This document shows positions 1,697 to 61,495 of a stretch of 64,000 nt of DNA, in pieces (the first letter of the stretch is position 1; each line of letters begins with the position of its first letter). A program made the position numbers and the translations under genes. The notes beneath the pieces are model-generated. The model was not told the origin of the DNA and did not search any database. It was given only the letters and a program-made list of their open reading frames with translations. Source of the DNA: Novakomyces olei (taxonomy: Eukaryota); NCBI GenBank assembly GCA_016906335.1, contig JADEYG010000003.1, forward strand, positions 868,001 to 932,000. Direction: 5' to 3'.

Positions 1697-3532
1697 TTAG
1701 ATTGGATTAGTAATTGATCAAATTTTAGTACTTTTGAGTGGATTGTCGTCTAAATTATTTAGTTGTCTAACTTGGTTCTATCCTAGTTGAGGATACAAAG
1801 TCCTCTCGTAACACTTTGATCAGTGTCTCGCTCGCTACTCAAAACGTTTCAATTTGGCAAACCTCGGTATAATTTGCAAACAAGAATCTACAAAGTGAAA
1901 TGATAAGAAATGGCAACGATTTTTTAGAAGTATTTGAGTGGGATATCAATCAAAAGTAGTCAATTACTCGACTTACGAGCCATAATTTTCAATGCGTACA
2001 CAATGCATTTTCATATTGGTCAGAAAAAGAATAAGATCAATGCTTGTAAAACACATTACTAGCCTCGTATGCATGTGTGGGGGCCATCTTTCACGTGGAT
2101 CGTGATGCCCTTCAGTCCTTTGTGAGTCCCTTATCCTCCGTGGGATAAGGTCGATTCAGAGTAAGTGACAGCCCACCAGCTACAGCCCACTCATTGATCG
2201 TTCAAAGAGGTCTTTTTTGGACGTTCTGATAGCAAACAACTCAAGTCTATTGGCTGGGGTTTTGTAATTGATAAGACTCGAACTAGTCATTAGTTCCTGT
2301 CAATTCACCTTCCTTTTTTGTATTTCAGCGAAATTACTGTTCCTTGCGTGACTGTGAAAGCCGATCACTTACGCATTGGGTAACGTATAGAAGCGATTAG
2401 CTCACCGAACAAATATTGAGTTGTAGTTGGAGCCCGTTTTTTCACTATTCATACACCGATAAGAGACTTTGCTCTTCTATCAAATTCTCAAATGCCGCTG
2501 TTGTGATTCTTCGAAGTGGGATGTGCTTTGTTACTGACTAATAATTTCATATGTTCCTTCCTGATCATTTAATATTAGTCGTTGCACACTCTTAAGTTTT
2601 TTGTAAAGCTTGATTTCGAATTCTTAGTAATCAAAGTCTTTATCATATCGAGAGCCGGAATGATGTCAATGTCCTTCCATTCTTCCATTGCATGAGAACG
2701 GTTGCCTACTCCAACTTTCCGCATAGTACTCCAAAACTGGCCCCCAATTTTGACGTAATAAGGGGTGCGGCAATTTGTTTAGAGTGGGCTTACCCAAACA
2801 ACGTATATGGGCCGTTGATAACACCAATGCGTAATCTATTATTCGCTTATCTCTGCTAATCACGGCATAGCTGTCCTATATCGACTTTGCTTTAGACTTA
2901 TTGACCTGAAACTTCGCAGATATCAGGCTAATCTTAGCTAGTTTGCATTGCGATTAATGCTCAACATAAGAAATCAAAACACCAATTTCACAATCGAAAA
3001 GTGCAAAAACTATTTCTATTCGTATGGATACAAAAGTTCAGTTTGGTTATCGCAAATTTCTATTGGTCTATTAAATTTTGAGTATGCACAAGCGCTCATT
3101 TTTTATGTTCATTTGTAATATTGCCTCTTAAAGGAAAGCAAAGCAGTCTGTTTATAAAGAGATGCTGTGGTATATTGCCTCTGTTCCCGAATCTTGTCAC
3201 ATCATTCGATTCAATTAACAGATGGTTAAATACGTTCGCAAAATCCGTTACCCGACCGCAAAACTAACGCGACTGTGCACGGATTTTCACTTGAAATGAA
3301 GTATTAGATGCATCTGAAATTATACTGAAACACTCATTCTTAAGCCAGGTTTACCTTACTTGACAATATTTGCATGTAAACGGTCGCCACAAATTTGGCT
3401 GATATTGAAACTGTATTACTTGATTGTCAAAAAGTAGTGTATTATGGGTCTTAAGCTATACCTGTCAAGTCAACAATTTCATTGGTGTTAACTATGTCAC
3501 AATCGCGGACTTTTTCAGCTTTAAATATTTAT

Positions 3533-8740: not shown

Positions 8741-10966
<2,226 letters not shown>

Positions 10967-13127: not shown

Positions 13128-13239
13128 TGCGCCGACTCGGATTCGAACCAAGGTAATCTGCGTGACATAACGACCAGTCACCACCGCGACCGGCAGATTT
13201 ATAAGCACAGTGCATTAATACCAGCTATGCTATCGGCGC
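13128..13239 (-). tRNA. tRNA-Ile(UAU) with 36-nt intron (13164-13199)
   Basis: Acceptor stem GCGCCGA/TCGGCGC, D arm GCAT/ATGC, anticodon arm CTGTG-CT TAT A[intron]A-CGCAG, T arm CTTGG-TTCGAAT-CCGAG, discriminator A, downstream oligo-T Pol III terminator. Confidence 0.93.
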
Positions 13240-23582: not shown

Positions 23583-26500
23583 ATGACGGGCACAGGCACT
23601 ACGGCGGACGACCGTCCACACATCCCCAAAGTCCCACAGCGGCCGCACATTCCTGCGCTTGACGGAGACCAGCCACGGGAGATCTCGTCGCCTAAAGTCT
23701 CGCGTCCGCTCGCCTCGAGATCCGCGTTTACTACGGCCGCGCCCGGCCCAATGTTCAGGGTGGGCGCCTCTGCCAACAACAGCAGCTCGAGTCTAAGTAA
23801 CCTTGCTGCCGGCGATGACTCGGCTGACTCGGCCGAGTCTAAGGCTCAAACGGCAACGGCCATTGGCCGTAGCGACAGCCCAACAACTCGGTCGCTTATC
23901 GACAACGCGAGCCTGGCACACGCTCGATGGCTGCTGGACAATATGCAGCAGCAGCAGCAGCAGCAATTGGCCGCCGCGAGACGCTCAGTATCGCCAGAGC
24001 TGCAGAGACCTGCACGTGATCCTCTGCGCCGCTCGCTCGGGAGCCATTTGGCACTCGATCATGCGAATATTCCGGACACTGTGCCGTTTGACGAGTCTGA
24101 GTTTCATCGCGACACGACAACACCGACTCTGTACGACGACGCGCACATTGACGCAGATGGAGAACGGCATTTTCACTCTGCAGGGCACTATTTTGCCTCT
24201 GCCGGAGAGGGCAGTGGCACTGCCCAAAGCTCTGGCAATTCCGTAAACTCTGGCAGTGGCTTAAACTCTGGCAGTGGCCTGCAAAAGTCTCCACTCGGCC
24301 GCAGCCGATCACAGCCGCCTCGCGAAGTCAGAGTGCCGCTCGATTCGAGGTCGGGAGCAGTTCCCCTTGTGCCTGCGGAGAGAGAGTCCGGGATCCCCTT
24401 TGACAGGCGGCAGTATGTAAACTCTGTAAGCTCTCCGCTGCCTCGTAACGCGACCCCGCAAGACTTGTACGACAAGGACCAGCCAAGGGACGATTTAAAC
24501 ACGGGCAGCGGCATTGGTATTAGCAATAGCAATAGCAATAGCAATAGCAATAGCAACAACAAAACTGGCAGCGGTAGTGCCACTGACAAGAGTAGTGGAA
24601 GGGCGCCAGGCAGTAGAGGAGCTCCGCCCGAGTGGTGGGCAGAGCCGACGCTGGAGATTATTGACGGAGTGGCTAAAGGCCGATGGAGGGAGCGGACGGT
24701 GCCGAGTTCGCATATGGGCAATCCTGCAGAGTACAGGCCGACGGGCAACCATGGCGACTTTGCCGGCCTTACGGGTCTTACTATAGGAGACCAGAGACCA
24801 GTGCCACACTATAGCGAGCAGATTGGGGGCAATGAAGAGCTGAGGCCGAAAGGAGTGCTGATTACTCGTGACGGAGAGGGAACTGCCGGTCTCACTTTTG
24901 ACGATGCTTCTGCGCCTTTGAGAACGATTGAAAAGGCAAACTTGCTGCCGCAGATGCAGCCGCTGACTCGGCGGCAGTCTCAGCTGGCGCAGATGCATGT
25001 GGAACAGGATTTACGTAGATTAAAGGACCTGAAAGCAGCAATGATGCGGCGTGAAGGGTTGGGCGGAGACCTGCCTCATTCAGCGTGGAAGGATATGTCG
25101 TCAGTGGCAGTTGAGGATGAGAGAGATTTGGCCTTGATGGAGCACCACGCTGCCTCCTTTGACCAGCTGGACCAGCTTGCTCGTGAGAGGGAGGCTGAAC
25201 TGCTGCGCCAGCTCGGCAGTTCTGGCAGAGGCCAAGCTGGGCTGCCGTTTGATGTAGTCCGTAACCCTAGAGGCAGCAGCAGACTGGACGAGGGGGACGC
25301 AGCAATAACCCCAGAGCAAAATGCTCTTGATATCGAGTCCTCAGAGCTGGCAAAGCAGCACAGGGAAATGGCAGCTAGAGGCCAAGTGCCAGAGCCACAG
25401 GCCGAGTTCAAGCCTCCTCTGGATAAGAACGTGCTTGACCAGTTACTGCTGGCTGGCGATGTGGATGTGCCTTCGCCTACTGTCGCCCATGACGCTCGTG
25501 ACCGTAAAGTCGTCTTTACACCAGACAGCCTGGCTTCTGCCAGCCAAAAGTCTCGTGCGGCAACGACGGGGTTAGAGAGCGCTAGTCCCGTGGCTGCAGG
25601 AGCGTACAAGCCTCCTACCAGTGCAGAGGTCAGCAGTAAACTCGACGAGTCTGCTCGAGGCCAGGCCGATAGTTTAAAGGCAGTAGGCGACAGAGGTGGC
25701 AGGGAGTCTAAGCAGGAAGCTAAGCAGGAGTCTAAACAAGAGTCTAAACAAGAGTCTAAACAAGAGTCTAAACAAGAGTCTAGACAAGAGTCTGAGCAGG
25801 AGGCGGTTGCTAAACCGGCCGAGCACGAAGAGGCCAAATCTGCTACTGCAGAACCTTCCTCCTCTTCTCGCTCATCCGTTCCAAACAACAAGTTTTCGTC
25901 AATAAGAGCAGCTTTTGCCAAGAATTTGGAGTCAAAGTTCAAAGCGGGCATGACTGGTCCACCTCCGTCACTGTCTAAACCTAAACCGGCTCCGTCAGAG
26001 AGTATTAGCAGCACAAACACAGAGGCAGATTCCACCGCTGTTGCCGGACTGAGCGATGTTCGTAAAGGCCGAGCAAGAGGGCCTCACCGTCGAGCTCCTG
26101 CTGGTAATGCTGCTTCTGCTGCTGCTGCTGAAACGAGCCAGCATAAGGGGTTTGATAAGGCTACTTTAGGTGCCTCACCTGTAATTACTTTGGTGGCTTT
26201 TGAGAATGGATCTGTGGTTTCGCATGAGCCAGCAGCGCCCCATAATAACACGCACTCTAAACCCGTACAAGACCAGCGTCAGAGCCCAAGTCAGTCACAG
26301 CCAAGTCACTTGCCTGAGATTAGCCAGGAAAAGCCAGCAGAGACACTTGTAGCGGAAATAGACGCTGGCGAAATGGAGGAAACGGTCCCAGAGGCAGTCG
26401 CTTCCGCAGAAGTTCCTCAAGGCGTTGAAGCTGAAAAGTCCAAAATGGTACATGGAGGCAAGGCTAGTGAGGATGCAAGGACTCTTGTGTCGGAAGTTGA

Positions 26501-42638: not shown

Positions 42639-45301
42639 TCATTTTTCGGCACGGGAAAGAGCTATCTTGTGCCTCAGTATGGGAAAGAATAGAGCCTCTA
42701 CTGACTGGTAACTTTGGTTGGCGGCGGAAATGACTCTAATCTCGCCGTCATTTATCTCAATATGAGAGGAAGCCTGGTTATTGACATCTAATCCCGGTGC
42801 ATCTAGATCAGGACGTACTTGAGGCAGCCAGCCCGCTCCCGGATTTCCATCTGCACAAAACGTCGTCCAAAGATTTCCCACTAGCTGGGCCGTTACCCGC
42901 TCTATGTGCTGCGAAAGTGAAGGCTCATGGTAGAATAAATAAGGCAGATCGCTTGCATGATGAACCCCGAGACCAGCAGCTCTTCGACTTGCCTGAGAGG
43001 CTTTCCATATATACCAGAAAACAGGAATGTGAACGTGTGATAGCTCCCTTGCAGTGTACAATTGTGGGGCAACAAACGAGCCATGACCAATCAAAGCTGA
43101 CATTGGATTCTTACGGAAATCGGCCGTGTGAGCTTCTGGCGGGTATGATCGAATGAGTTCTGATCTAATCGGCTCCGAAAAATTTTGTAGAAATCTGGCC
43201 ATTTTCTGCGGGTCATCAAGCTAGAAGTCAGCTTCTAGTAATATAAAACGGTCAGGAAGGTTGCAGATCAACTAGATGCAACTACTTATTAATAGTAAAT
43301 ATAGAGAAAATGGTGTAAACACTAGCAATCTCAAATAGCAGCAAATAATGAGAATGAAAATGAAAACAATAGATTAAAAAGATGTAGTTGAATGAAGATT
43401 GGCAACAAGAACAATACCAAACTTAAATTCATGAAAATAGTAACAGCAAGCCAAAAGAATACTTACCCCGAAATTCCGGGCAAACGACGTTCCCTCATCC
43501 GCAACATGGCCCATCATAACAGCCTGAAGCCCCTTGACAAGACGGCCAGAAGAAATAGCAACATCAGGATGCATTTCCCATATGGCATCCTCGCCAGTCT
43601 CGACACAAGCGGACCAGAACCAGTCGAGCCGAGTTACTTCGAGCAGAGTCTCTGTCGGCACCGCACAAAGTTTGTCGAACCGTTCCTTCGGCGTTTCCCC
43701 CGTAATTCCAAGAGCATTGAGATAGTACTCGTAAACAGGCTGATGACGATCCACAGGGAGCATATCCTGATATTTAGCAGGGAAGGTTAGACGATAGAAA
43801 TGACTATAATTTGGAATAGCAGCCAGAAATGAAAGGTTTATCGTGAGAGCAATTCAGTATATATAATAACAAAGTACACATATACTTCATTGAAGAAGAA
43901 AGAAATAACGAAGATAGTCGACTTCAAAGATAAATTGCGGGGAATGGCAAAGACAGCCGGCCTGCGCTTGAAATGGAAACGCATTCCGCCATTATAGCTC
44001 AAGTATCAAAAGGAAGAAACATGAAATGATACTATTTAATATTTGAACAAAATTAACAGGACCAGACACTATCGTGCTTTATCACAATCTGTAAAGAACG
44101 GCTATACCAAGTAATGATTATGACCCAAATGACAAAATTGCCATCCGGCACGAAAAACCAAATAACACTAACGAGAAATGATATAGAGAAAATAAAAGTA
44201 TTTTACTCAAAAAATAAAAAAAACTAAAAAATAAATAAATAAACAAAAAGACAGACAGACAAATGAATTGAATTAACTGAGTACTTGAGAATAAATAGTA
44301 AAAATATTAACAAATGCTTGCTCATACCATAGTAGTCGCAGACCCGGATTGCATGATAGCACGCTTTATGTAAGGGAGTCCACCAGTCAATTGATATGCA
44401 ATAGAAACAGCACCAGCCGACTGGCCAACAAGCGAGATCTTTGTTCGATCACCACCAAAATTAGAGATATTTGCATGAACCCATTCAAGAGCCATACGTT
44501 GATCGTGCAGGCCATAATTGCCCTGGTGACCGCCATTGCAGGCAGCAATATCACTCGAAGCTAAGAATCCGAAAATGTTGACTCTATAATTTGGTACTAC
44601 GACCACTACATTATGCTTGCGCACATACTCTGTCGCGTCGTACCAGGGAACAGCGGCAGATCCATCGCGCCAAGAGCCACCATAGATATACAGCATTACA
44701 GGCAGCTGAACGGCACCGCGACTGGCTGCCTCGGGACAGTAAACACAGAGATTAAGACAGTCCTGTTCACTAGATCCGGGCTCCCTAATAAAGTCAGGGC
44801 ATAGAGCCAGCATTTCCGTGAGAAGACGGCCTTTCTTTTGAGGGCATTGAGGCCTGCATCTGGTTAGTCAAGAAAGACAAAGAAAGAGAGGCAGAAGCCT
44901 AAGCTAAACACAAACACTACAAATGCAAATACAAATGCCAAGCTTAAATCAAAAATCACGAAACGATAAAGTGAACGAATGCAATATTATTAATTAATCA
45001 ATTATTGATCTGTCAATCAACCCACATAGCCGTTTTAAATTTAATTGTCCACAAATTCAATCAAAGCCTAAACAAATTTTGCGTACCCATAATTAAAACA
45101 GTCCCTGGGCTCGGTCCAAGGTATCGGCGCAGTAGGCCGATGAAACCGTTTCGCCCGTGCAAAAGGTAACCCTAAGAACTTTGCAACCGGAGAACGGCCA
45201 CCATCGCGTGCATTTACATTTGGCGTTGGCGATAAAGGACAGGTATCAATGAATCCCACCACAGGACCGTTTGTCGTCTCCACCGTCAGCCGATCTGCCA
45301 T
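42639..45301 (-). CDS. Type-B carboxylesterase/lipase, 4 exons
   Basis: KFLGLPFA, SEQDCLNLCV, YIYGGSW, NYRVNIFGFL, nucleophile GQSAG, acid GHVADEG, His GVHHASDL. Confidence 0.92.
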
Positions 45302-45790
45302 ATCGACGATGTGCCGCTGTGGAGATTATGTCGCATCGTAGTTTCACATGTGACAGCTGTGTTACTTGTGCGTCGAATTATACGTTTGGAAAAATTGGCA
45401 ATAGCAGGCGCGTAAGTAGACATTACTGTTATTTCAGCCAGAATTTCGGGATATAGTTAGTCTAGTCAAAAGCTAGAATCACATAGGGTTAGGGTTAATT
45501 TGTCTCGTCCTGACACTAACTGTTAAATACTGGCGGAACTAATCATTAATATATCTTTTCAGCAAGTAAGCATCCATTTACACAACAAGAATCACTCGTT
45601 AGTAGAGCACAATTTTCCCTTTTTTTTTCAGGTCTAGTTCTTCACTCTCCTCGATCAAGCTGCGCTTGATAAGTATATCATCACGCTTTGCTGAGGTAAT
45701 GGCAGATTTGAAGTGCACATATACTCGCGCTGTTGTTGCCGAAAGAGATGACTTTTTTCCGGCATTGATTGCGCGAGTATATGCGCTAGT

Positions 45791-45876
45791 GTTCCAAGGA
45801 TGAGACGCATCATCGCGACAAGGCCGGCCTTACGGCCGGGCTCGTGGGCTCTTTTACATTTAAGTCGCTGAGGAAC
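45791..45876 (+). ncRNA. Candidate box C/D snoRNA-like module inside a larger structured region
   Basis: Terminal stem GTTCC/GGAAC directly flanks a variant box C (AGGATGA, 45797-45803) and box D (CTGA, 45868-45871) in K-turn geometry; internal hairpin CCGGCC-TTAC-GGCCGG. No target recognised. Confidence 0.5.
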
Positions 45877-47316
45877 TTTTACCTTCAGCCCTATTTGAGC
45901 TCTATTTGAGGCTTTACTGTTGATCTGGTATACCTTTTAATTCATGGCTTTGACGATTGTTGTACCTCCATGGATGTGGTAAAAATAATATTTCTTTCGC
46001 TTTTCTTAGGCACGAGCATAATGGGCTCAAGGCATCAACCCTTCCCGATCTATTCTGATATTGATTGCTTGATGATCGTATCATTGAGGGAAAGTCGTCT
46101 TTTGTACGATGACCAAAAATCATATAAAGCGCGCCTCTGCATGATTCCACTCGTTCATCCTTTTCTTCGAGTTACGTACTATATACTTGACTAGAATGAG
46201 ACCAGCAAGCTGTCCATCATACTTTTTTCCTTCGTAAAATTAACTTAAAATAGAATTAAAAAAATATATATTAGGCTAATGTATTGTGGCATAAACACTT
46301 TTAAGGACGCCTGGCATTTTTACGATTCGAGAGTTACGACGTTCATCACATCCCCGTCGTATCGTAGTAGAGGATTATCAGTCACGGAACGTTGGGATAG
46401 TAATTCGCTTCGGAGCGCACAAAAATATCGGAACCCAATCACGTTGAGCGACCATGTGGTAGCGCTGACAGCCTGCACCAAAATAGAAGCCTTGTTAATT
46501 AGGCCAAAGTTTTCGGTGAAAAGGATGGGCATGCCGTAGTTGCATAATCTTAGACGTAAGGTTTGATCAGCAACGAATAACGTATCCCGCTATTCTAAAT
46601 TATTTAGAGATGTACATGAAGGTCCATATAGCTAGTTGAATCAATTATAATCGGCGTCACGAGCAGACAATTCAATCTACATTTGTGCCTTGTGATATCT
46701 GTGGCAGAGCACGCTATTGCACTATACCCTCGTCACTGTAGAGTTAGCATTCTCGCATTGCACACAAGCCAAGAAACTCTACACAAAAGTTGATTCGGTC
46801 ACAAATATGCTGCTAATATTCGGTCAAAGAAGACTGATGACATCATCTTCATCACATTGCATTTGACGGGCATTAACAAAAATGGTGTCCGTATATTAAT
46901 TTGCAATATGGAACATGAAATAGAAAGTGACAATTATAAGGAGTCAAGATTAATTAGATGTCGGAATATATTCAACGACGATCGGACATCCATTTAATAT
47001 TATGAAGCGTGTAAAAAGTGATGTTCATATAAAAGGAAAATGCTTAATATAATTAATTATATTTCATTATTTATACATGGAGTAAAATTATTGTACTTGG
47101 CAGCTGTTATTTTTAGACATCAATCATACACAAAGAGCCATCAAAACCATCAAGTAATCGTAATGAATGTGATCGGGATGATGACAGGCAATTTACGAGA
47201 GACCTGACACAATCATATCCACAGCACAGAGGCAATGCAGGCACTAGACGCAAGAGATCACCCATAGTCTCCAATAGATTCTCATAACATTACCCGAAAC
47301 ATGAACAACATTCTTG

Positions 47317-47349
47317 ACGCGTTAGCGCCACGAACGCGTGCCGACGCGT
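47317..47349. promoter_or_regulatory. Three perfect MCB elements (ACGCGT) within 33 bp, upstream of the MscS gene
   Basis: ACGCGT at 47317, 47334 and 47344; Reb1-like TTACCCG at 47290. Confidence 0.55.
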
Positions 47350-47900
47350 AAATTATGCGCGAGCGACGGAATATTTTCCTATTCGATCATTGGGGGTCGG
47401 CAATTTGGCTGTGTTTCGACTAATTTCGCACTATGTGTTTTATTTATAATAGCCTATAAAGTAATGATGACATATATACTAAGGCGCTAAGATTACTTGA
47501 CTACTTGTCTGATGTACCAGGAAGCCACAATGGGAATAAAGGAGCAAACCAAGAATTTGCGGCAGTTATACACGAGACGTGGTCCTGGTTCACTTGGTTT
47601 GCTTGCCAATCTTTTAAGGTTTGACACCAGACTTTTTAAAGGAACCCGAGTACTAGAGCTGTGCCGTATTAGCCTCTTTTGAGAGACAAAACGCCAGACT
47701 TTTCGTTGTCTCGGGATTGGCTGGCAGCAAGTCAATTTTTAGAGTATTTGTTGCACTCGCCAGCGAGTCGGGCTGCGAAAAAACGTTTCCGTTTAAAGAG
47801 CAGCCTGGCTTTCATTGCACTTTTTACAATTTTAATTTCAAGTCTAGTGCTTTTCGTTTGCCGCGAAAACTGAGCCAAGAGCTCTTGACTCTGCTTGGCA

Positions 47901-50880
47901 ATGACGACAGTCATACCTCGAGAAGACGAGGGCGGCGACCGCGCCCCCTCGCCAGCGGCGACCGTCAGAAGATCAATGTCGACTTCAAGGCAACGTGCGG
48001 AATCTTACTCGCGACACGATATGCAGGAAATTGCACACGCGGAACGTACAGTATCACGAATTCAGGAGGAAGAAGGCGAAGATGATCACGATGACACTGC
48101 TTCGCGAGGACTGCACCGCTCAAAGAGTAAAAAGGTATGAAAAGGCAAAGGACATGCTTTTTTAGAGTGATTTTTAGTTTTTTTATAAAATAACCGGTTT
48201 TGATACTAATTGTTAGGATGAAATGGACGAGTTTGAACGGCTTACGCGCCCCGATGTTGTAGCACCTAAACCATTTAGACCGCCAGAAGAGCCACTGACA
48301 ATGGTGGGCAAAGCGTTCAAATTTCTGCACAAAACAAATTTTATTTTCCGGTACCTTGTGTACATTATCCCGGTGGGTGTTCTCCTCCTCGTACCGATTA
48401 TTATGGGAGCCGCCCGTGGAGACGTCCATAATTGGTCGGTGGGAGGTGTGGAGCTGATGTGGATGGGAATCTGGTGGGAGATTATTTGGCTGACGCTGTG
48501 GGCTTCCAGGGTAGCCGCCAAAATGATGCCTTACTTGGTGGCAGTTTTTGTTTCCCTTTTTTCCAATGACTACAAGACTTACAAGGACATGTCTGTCGCA
48601 CTTGAACCCCCCATCACACTGTTTTTCTGGTGGCTTTCTATCGTTGTTTCCTTCCGTCCTATCTGCAAGGAGCATAATATCCACGGGAATACTGGCCTGC
48701 TCACCTGGCAAAAGCAAGCCTGGCGGGTTATGCTCGTCATTTTCATTGCCATGGTAATCAACTTGGTAGAAAAAATTATTATTCAGTTAATTGCCATCTC
48801 TTTCCATCGTCGCCAGTACGAAGACCGGATTGTAATGAACCGGTTTGCCATTGACCAGCTGGCTAAATTGTACGATTATTCGAGAAAGCGATCAAAACTG
48901 TTTGAATCTGAAGTCAAGCACGGGCACAAGGAGAACTTTTTCAAGTTTGCCAACCGCAAAGAAGGCGATAGATCGGGCGGACTGACTCCCGAGGAAGATC
49001 CCGGGACACTGACTCCCAACATCGACAAGGCACTGCTACGGACGCAAGATGTCATGAATACTACTATGAAGGGAGCCAAAAAAGCAGTCGCCTCTGCGGG
49101 CGATGCTATTGGCAAAATGGCGGGAGAAATCGGGAACCGCAGAGTAGAAAACTCTACTGCTCCAAGGCAAGTAGTCCTGCAGCTGATCTCTACAACGTCT
49201 GGTGCACAAACACTAGCGCGGCAATTATTCAAGACGTTCCTTAAACCCGACCGGGACAGTATTAATCAGGAAGATTTGATGCCCGTCTACCAGGTGACTT
49301 CGTTTGACGGAGTTAAGGAGACAGTGCAGACTAATCAGGAAGAGCTGGACGCAGCCTATCAGCTGTTTGACAAGGATATGAATGGCGATCTGTCCTGCGA
49401 AGAGCTCGAGTGGTCGTTTGTCGAGATTGGCAGGGAGAGAAAGGCAATTATGAGCAGTCTGAAGGACCTGGATAACGCGGTTAGCAAGCTGAACGATATC
49501 CTAATGGTTATTGTATCCATTATTGTCATCTTGATTTTTCTGTGCATGATTGCCTCTGGGTTCAGTGGCATTCTCACCTCTGCCGGAACAACACTTCTGG
49601 GCCTTTCCTGGCTGTTTTCTGCTACTGCACAAGAATTGCTGGCAAGTATTGTCTTTGTCTTTGTCAAGCACCCCTTTGACGTGGGCGACCGTATCGATGT
49701 GCAGTTCAATGGGGCAGTTACCTCACTGATAGTAAAAGAAATCAGTTTGCTAGCAACCGAGTTTAAAGGACTCGATAATAAAATCTACCAGGCACCCAAC
49801 AATGTCCTCAACCAGCTCTTTATCCTGAACCACAGGCGTACGGGCCAAGTGGCGGAGGCAGTCTTTGTCAACCTTAAATTTGGCACTACACTTGAGCAGA
49901 TAATGGCCCTGAGGGATGCTCAAGCGGACTTTGTGCGACTGGAAAAACGGGATTTTACTGCGGATGTGGTGACAGAGCTTTGCGATATTCCTGACTTGTT
50001 GATGGTTAATTTAAAGGTCGTCTTTTTCCACAAGAGCAACTGGCAAAACGAGGGCTCCAGGATGGCTCGTCGTAACAAGTTTATGTGTGCATTAATGACG
50101 AATATCCAAGCACTCGGTATCGAACCGGCGCTCAACTTGCAACCGGGCAAAACGCAAGTCAGCCCTGTTTACCTCGCCTACCAGCAGCCCCCACCGGGCT
50201 ACAGTCCGCCCCGGCCTGGCCCTGGAGGCAGTGGCAGTACCGGCAACAGTGCTGGTATCGGCAGCAGCAACTCTGCCTCTGACGGCCACGAGGCCAACTA
50301 TAACCATCCTCAACTGCACTCGGCCCTTCGAAGGGGCCCGTCTGTGTTGCAGGCGAGAAAGCACGTTGATTTCTCTCTCGGAGCGGCCGATATGGTCTCA
50401 CGCGACCCAACAACTGACCTCGACGATACGTGGAAACCCAATGTTCCGGAAGTTGCACTGGAGCAAAATGGATCAGAAGACCAACGCAGGCAGGCAGAAT
50501 TGCGACGTCGACGGGCCACAAGCACAGGTCCTTCAGAGGCTTCACGCTCGCCCTCACGAGCAAGTGCTGGACCTCTTTCGCAGCATACAGCCGGACGGCC
50601 TTCAGTCGATGACGGAGCCAGTGTACGCAGTCGGCCAAACAGGTTTGGGTTTATTCCTTCACTGCACAGAAAGAGTGAGAGTGAAAACCATAATGCTGCT
50701 CCAGATGACGCAGGAGAGGACGTTGAAAAGTTTGCTGATTCCCAGGGACACGCAATGTCCCCTGTATCCACTGCTCAAGAGTTTCACTCGCCCCGGCTGC
50801 CGAACCCTGTCGACCGAGTTCCCAGCGAAGCAGTGGATGATGTCAGTTCTATACAGGAAAGTATCCGTCGAGTGCAATAG
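47901..50880 (+). CDS. MscS-like mechanosensitive channel (Msy1/Msy2 type) with EF hand; intron 48135-48216
   Basis: EKIIIQLIAISFHRRQYEDRI, EF-hand DKDMNGDLSCEE (49369-49404), MscS motif FVFVKHPFDVGDRI, APNNVL, NWQNE...RRNKFMCAL. Confidence 0.92.

Positions 50881-59944: not shown

Positions 59945-61495
<1,551 letters not shown>

Follow-up and report, generated by a model that had tools for sequence, protein, structure and literature searches.

A probable box C/D snoRNA with a neighbouring long hairpin and a predicted large-subunit rRNA target in a fungal intergenic region

The gene-free gap of ~2.7 kb (~45300–48250) in this fungal genome raises the question of whether the motifs and inverted repeats that it holds form a non-coding RNA locus and, if so, of which class. 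An earlier note had described the gap as the site of a highly structured RNA with a box C/D kink-turn module and had proposed either a snoRNA precursor or a new structured RNA. All of the noted elements are located within the gap, and each was found at the position originally assigned to it in the window, which is the whole 64-kb stretch of DNA analysed here. Only three of them exceed the expectation from chance, namely the 30-bp hairpin at 45715–45786, the tandem telomere-like sequence TAGGGTTAGGGTTA, and the guide that the C/D module carries.

The gap is a divergent intergenic region. Its left neighbour is an intron-containing carboxylesterase gene on the minus strand with the ATG at ~45301, and its right neighbour is a gene for an MscS-like channel, which begins at ~48000 and in which homology of the Msy1 type starts at 48226. 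The best matches of the channel protein in the protein database are 44–49% identical and belong to Saitoella, Schizosaccharomyces, Protomyces, and Taphrina, which are members of Taphrinomycotina. Judged from such protein matches, the source organism is an ascomycete, and the protein database contains no close sequenced relative of it. The reading of the region as a coding exon, which the earlier note had named among the outcomes that would contradict its proposal, was rejected. The gap contains no long reading frame with or without trial splicing, and none of its eight open reading frames (52–122 amino acids) has a Pfam match at E ≤ 0.1. Elsewhere in the window, a 112-nt tRNA predicted by Rfam, which presumably contains an intron, is located at 13128–13239 on the minus strand and matches the full model with 46.7 bits. 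ARAGORN in its bacterial setting reported zero tRNA genes in the 64-kb window.

The predicted box C/D snoRNA is 86 nt long and occupies positions 45791–45876 of the plus strand. The ends of the molecule are joined by a terminal stem of five Watson–Crick base pairs, formed by GUUCC (45791–45795) and GGAAC (45872–45876). Box C (AGGAUGA, 45797–45803) and box D (CUGA, 45868–45871) follow and precede the two strands of the stem, and a hairpin with a 6-bp stem, CCGGCC-TTAC-GGCCGG, is located between them at 45824–45839. Box C deviates from RUGAUGA only at position 2, where U is replaced by G. No convincing C′ or D′ boxes are visible within 45791–45876. The position of the boxes near the ends, the short terminal stem, and the length, which falls within the range of ~60–200 nt, are those of box C/D snoRNAs.

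The kink-turn module of the earlier note is present with the geometry ascribed to it, but the geometry alone is not beyond chance, since a loose scan of both strands of the window (128 kb in total) returned five candidates. The candidate at 45791–45876 is the only one within 45300–48250, and no additional snoRNA with C/D geometry was found in the gap. The best-stemmed of the five, a GGATGA...CTGA pair with an 8-bp terminal stem at 25116–25199 on the plus strand, is located inside an open reading frame of 1140 amino acids and exemplifies how such geometry arises by chance. The Rfam search that had been suggested as a check produced no match at the gathering score in the region, and the matches at E ≤ 10 were all sub-threshold. 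The commonness of the geometry (five per 128 kb) and the lack of a gathering-score match in Rfam speak for an alternative in which a chance C/D-like motif lies beside a palindrome of the DNA level, for example a foldback or MITE-type relic or a sequence prone to cruciform formation, and nothing functional is transcribed. The evidence that bears on this alternative comes from the guide and from the long hairpin.

The earlier note had left the putative D guide without a target. The guide, TTTTACATTTAAGTCG, occupies positions 45852–45867 on the plus strand, and its core, the 12 nt directly adjoining box D (45856–45867), is complementary to the sequence CGACTTAAATGT of large-subunit (LSU) rRNA. 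The Rfam alignment to plant snoZ199, described below, drew attention to the resemblance of the core to a stretch near the 3′ end of LSU rRNA, and the target search that this prompted was post hoc. Metagenomes were scanned with a pattern anchored on a conserved LSU motif beside the complement of the guide, which yielded 24 loci. The target sequences obtained in this way are the LSU 3′ ends of other eukaryotes. Since 11 nt of the guide formed part of the scan pattern, the match of the core in the 24 loci is by construction. The result is independent only in that such sequences occur at all and belong to LSU 3′ ends, not to random DNA. A homologous stretch of ~90 nt is common to all 24 loci according to blastn, and five of the six loci tested against Rfam are 3′ ends of LSU_rRNA_eukarya that reach model position 3401.

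The sequence CGACTTAAATGT is present in 10 of the 24 loci (L042 among them), and forms 12 contiguous Watson–Crick pairs with the guide, starting from the base that adjoins box D; G–U pairs extend this duplex to 13–16 bp. The other 14 loci are yeast-like and read CGACTTAGATGTA, which allows 13 contiguous pairs including one G–U. The LSU 3′ parts used were 229–1558 nt long each, and the RNAduplex optimum coincided with the predicted site in all four LSU fragments tested out of the 24 loci, with energies of −19.2 to −22.7 kcal/mol. Locus L042 was dropped as LSU evidence because it contains only a 90-nt LSU-like piece (positions 52–141) in an otherwise non-rRNA contig. The copy stems either from an rDNA spacer duplication or from chimeric assembly of the contig.

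A45863, the fifth nucleotide upstream of box D, is opposite the first U of GACUU in the target, that is, the bracketed residue of GAC[U]UAAAUG. This uridine, selected according to the D+5 rule, is located 84 nt from the 3′ end of the LSU rRNA in both L033 and L038. The latter is a fungus-like metagenome rDNA contig, which also carries a 5S rRNA gene (710–830) on the opposite strand in the spacer downstream of the LSU gene. With the LSU rRNA of other eukaryotes, the locus thus has an antisense element of at least 10 nt that ends at box D and complies with the D+5 rule. The probability that a 12-mer match would occur in this register by chance is ~0.005–0.01, a rough figure obtained by analytic calculation rather than from controls, for five candidates and ~5.4 kb of rRNA. 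The 16-nt guide had 26 matches in viral contigs, which is approximately the chance number. A literature search for the guide motif in snoRNAs found nothing relevant.

We propose that the plus strand of 45791–45876 encodes a single-guide box C/D methylation-guide snoRNA directed at the uridine that lies 84 nt from the 3′ terminus of the LSU rRNA, and we estimate the probability of this reading at roughly 60%. The locus is thus a probable member of a well-known class, the box C/D snoRNAs, and the alternative of a new structured RNA is not needed. The central proposal of the earlier note, that a box C/D snoRNA is flanked by a hairpin for its processing, is supported, and an rRNA target for the guide was found. 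The perfect 12-nt complementarity of the guide to the rRNA, which lies in the proper register and falls on a site apparently methylated in plants, argues against a chance motif beside a palindrome.

The long hairpin at 45715–45786 ends 4 nt before the terminal stem of the predicted snoRNA. Its outer arms, 45715–45730 and 45771–45786, pair at 15 of 16 positions. As RNA of the plus strand, the hairpin forms 30 base pairs, of which 13 are G–C, 12 are A–U, and five are G–U, interrupted by single mismatches only. The minus-strand RNA forms 26 base pairs, including two G–U, with a 6 × 6 internal loop and 16 contiguous pairs. The view that the G–U pairs favour the plus strand is correct for the continuity of the helix but not for its energy, which is equal on both strands (−39.7 kcal/mol for plus and −39.9 kcal/mol for minus). 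The apical loop in the minimum free energy (MFE) fold is UGAC, and the centroid structure leaves an 18-nt open loop.

The plus-strand folding of 45715–45786 has a z-score of −7.34. Not one of 20 dinucleotide-shuffled versions of the window contained a hairpin with at least 15 of 16 positions paired and a loop of 3–80 nt, and only two other loci in the native window reach this level, both of which are long (AAAT)n or (ATTT)n microsatellites, at 9185–9300 and 60930–61200. In the comparison of folding with shuffled sequences, which had been put forward as a check, both strands of the 211-nt block folded well (z-scores of −4.98 for plus and −6.70 for minus), and the snoRNA segment alone was only modestly better than shuffles, with a z-score of −2.93 and two of 200 shuffles as good.

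The equal stability of the palindrome on both strands and the 16 contiguous pairs of the minus strand speak for a foldback element beside a chance motif. On the other hand, the five G–U pairs lengthen the helix on the snoRNA strand only. The earlier note had counted a transposon or MITE relic among the findings that would speak against it, and no further copy of the hairpin arms was detected in the 64-kb window; the sole other match has three mismatches and is at the level of chance. Taken with the guide complementarity, these observations make a palindromic relic with an accidental C/D motif unlikely, although it is the alternative to which we give the most weight.

The hairpin probably serves the processing of the snoRNA precursor by an enzyme of the RNase III type. 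It is nearly continuous on the snoRNA strand and positioned 4 nt from the terminal stem, as an entry site of RNase III for 5′ trimming would be expected to be. In yeast snoRNAs processed by Rnt1, the 5′ processing signal is a hairpin close to the snoRNA terminal stem. The hairpin itself could instead be the main product of the locus, as a Dicer or RNase III substrate for small RNAs or as a regulatory stem, with the snoRNA co-expressed or incidental. The near-continuous 30-bp duplex with its low z-score would suit this role, and a structure-only match to the pre-miRNA model mir-2032 was detected, but at 19.4 bits it is far under the cut-off of 100. The 4-nt spacing to the terminal stem resembles instead the snoRNA 5′ processing signals of yeast, and we consider a hairpin product quite improbable.

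A further helix had been proposed to enclose both the hairpin and the snoRNA. Each of its arms overlaps a candidate splice site: the 5′ arm, GCTGAGGTAA (45690–45699, plus strand), a 5′ site (GTAATG, 45696), and the 3′ arm, TTACCTTCAGC (45879–45889, plus strand), a 3′ site (CAG, 45886–45888). The helix is present in the MFE structure as five base pairs, a bulge, and five base pairs. However, the energy of the flank-to-flank duplex is no better than that of controls, since an equally good value was reached in 218 of 2000 shuffled sequences and in 8 of 52 controls from real sequence, and the closing helix is not supported as a significant feature. The idea of structure-controlled splicing rests on this helix and is thus built on pairing no better than chance. 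A 7-bp hairpin at 45654–45670 is also present as described, and is trivial by expectation.

The two intron-like sequences noted earlier, GTAAGC...CAG (45566–45631) and GTAATG...CAG (45696–45888), are both present as candidates. The first, as read in the plus strand, consists of GTAAGC, a long pyrimidine tract, and CAG, and no canonical CTRAY branch site was seen in it. In the second, the 5′ site (GTAATG, 45696) and the pyrimidine-rich 3′ site (CAG, 45886–45888) are plausible, and the base at position +5 of the 5′ site is atypical. The branch candidates between them are only weak, namely CUGAG in box D and UUUAC, and no CTRAY site of the kind found in the esterase introns is located between the snoRNA and the CAG. 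The introns of the carboxylesterase gene at 43770–44326 and 43210–43470 (minus strand) are long, ~270–555 nt, and AT-rich, with 5′ sites GTATGA or GTAAGT and branch sites CTAAC or CTGAC near a 3′ CAG or TAG.

We consider it about equally probable that the snoRNA precursor is intronic in a non-coding host and that it is an independent transcript. We speculate that the segment 45690–45889 is an intron with both splice sites held in one helix that encloses the RNase III hairpin and the snoRNA, and with box D lying over the best branch-like sequence, so that splicing of the host would be mutually exclusive with snoRNP assembly or RNase III release. In the full form of this scenario, a plant-type snoR13/Z199 guide would have been kept in an early-diverging ascomycete, together with an LSU methylation that has to date been mapped in plants only. 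The combination is a long shot.

The tandem telomere-like sequence TAGGGTTAGGGTTA (45484–45497, no strand assigned) is located ~230 nt upstream of the hairpin and is a possible promoter site of the Tbf1/Teb1 type. Tbf1 sites occur at snoRNA and ribosomal-protein genes. The sequence has no second tandem copy in the 64-kb window, in which single TTAGGG motifs are under-represented, with five per strand compared to ~14 expected. A telomere-like sequence in reverse orientation, AACCCTAAG, is located at 45168–45176 within the first coding exon of the esterase gene, ~310 nt from TAGGGTTAGGGTTA. The TTAGGG-like tandem may be a reasonable promoter element for the snoRNA in either the intronic or the independent mode, and a role at the divergent esterase gene is just as conceivable. 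The latter role, together with the divergent intergenic location, would agree with the region being the promoter or 5′ untranslated region of a neighbour, either the carboxylesterase gene or the MscS-like channel gene. However, the structured block is 390–590 nt from the ATG of the esterase, its distance to the channel gene exceeds 2 kb, and such a role would leave the guide complementarity and the hairpin unexplained. We therefore regard a purely promoter or untranslated function as very improbable.

Based on the arrangement of these elements, a pathway for the production and function of the predicted snoRNA can be outlined. The precursor would be either the intron of a non-coding host, extending from GTAATG at 45696 to the CAG ending at 45888, or a transcript driven from the TTAGGG-like element. 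The hairpin 45715–45786 would act as RNA and provide the entry site for an RNase III of the Pac1/Rnt1 type. After the cleavage, 5′–3′ exonucleases would trim the precursor up to the boundary of the snoRNP. Boxes C and D, joined by the 5-bp terminal stem, would form a kink-turn that recruits Snu13, Nop56/58, and fibrillarin. The 12–16 nt directly upstream of box D would pair with LSU rRNA, presumably including that of the organism itself. The fifth guide nucleotide would then face the uridine located 84 nt from the LSU 3′ end, which would become 2′-O-methylated. The snoRNA would use only its single (D) guide.

If the snoRNA is real, it would add an unannotated gene to a poorly sampled fungal lineage and would predict that a ribose close to the 3′ end of the large rRNA is methylated. 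The table of a review, in the part that covers this site, lists the methylation for three plants and for neither yeast nor human (PMC11542601). The site and its guide would either predate the split of plants and fungi, with repeated loss, or have been reinvented, which makes the snoRNA at 45791–45876 a small testable point on snoRNA turnover. The tight layout of hairpin and snoRNA would also offer a clean substrate for RNase III-dependent snoRNA release outside budding yeast. The current understanding of snoRNAs is unchanged by the locus. We consider it mildly notable in that it predicts, in a fungus, the counterpart of a methylation listed until now for plants alone. A prior fungal description is possible: two sections of “The fungal snoRNAome” name no family for the site, and its supplementary target tables could list one (PMC5824354).

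The hairpin resembles the Rnt1/Pac1 hairpins of yeast snoRNA precursors in being a long duplex directly 5′ of the mature snoRNA. In those precursors, the stems comprise a duplex of at least ~2 helical turns beside the snoRNA, and the 30 bp located 4 nt away agree with this. An AGNN tetraloop is a determinant for budding-yeast Rnt1, which prefers it, whereas the loop of the hairpin described here is UGAC. A Pac1-like enzyme is therefore a better candidate than Rnt1.

Among fungal snoRNAs, the Nc CD series of Neurospora crassa and the snR series of Schizosaccharomyces pombe are similar to the predicted snoRNA in size (69–125 nt is typical) and in having a single functional guide, of 10–17 bp. 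They have degenerate C′/D′ boxes and are located in the introns or intergenic parts of non-coding hosts, and most C/D snoRNAs of S. pombe and N. crassa are intron-encoded (PMC2780460). The guides accepted in N. crassa form 10–21 bp and follow the D+5 rule (PMC2780460). The table of N. crassa targets (Table 1) differs from the prediction made here, since it lists no uridine near the 3′ end of the 26S rRNA, and only Um3021 and Am3264 beyond position 3000 (PMC2780460).

The closest comparison for the target site comes from plants. From the position number and the sequence of plant rRNA, we take U3301 to be the uridine 84 nt from the LSU 3′ end. U3301 of Arabidopsis 25S rRNA is given as a site of 2′-O-methylation mapped by RiboMeth-seq and assigned to snoR13 (PMC8053127). 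Arabidopsis snoR13 is also given as the guide for 18S-Um615, with read counts for AtsnoR13-1 and AtsnoR13-2 (PMC8583080), and the predicted snoRNA has no counterpart of this second guide. Um3301 corresponds to Um3305 of tomato and Um3304 of tobacco, and the entry for it in the review table is without a human, yeast, algal, or archaeal counterpart (PMC11542601). The predicted fungal site appears to be the plant 25S-Um3301 site.

Rice Z199 would be the orthologue of snoR13, and the literature found on the Z199 snoRNA states no target. A search with the snoZ199 model (RF00200) in one viral record and 14 control genomes, a sample that is uninformative, produced no match. The score of this plant model against the fungal module is 19.2 bits, with a cut-off of 47 and an E-value of 8.9, which is no better than other chance C/D matches. 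The host of snoZ199 is a plant, whereas here it is a fungus, and the 5′ (D′) half aligns with few identities, with the consensus guide block absent from the fungal sequence. Nevertheless, the two share the C/D architecture and the length (an 84-position model compared to 86 nt here), and the alignment covers the model from end to end, with AUUUAAGUC-N-CUGA in common and in the same register. The guide core AUUUAAGUC is placed one base before CUGA in both, so that the same LSU uridine would be selected, and we infer that the plant and fungal guides may serve the same site and belong to the same family.
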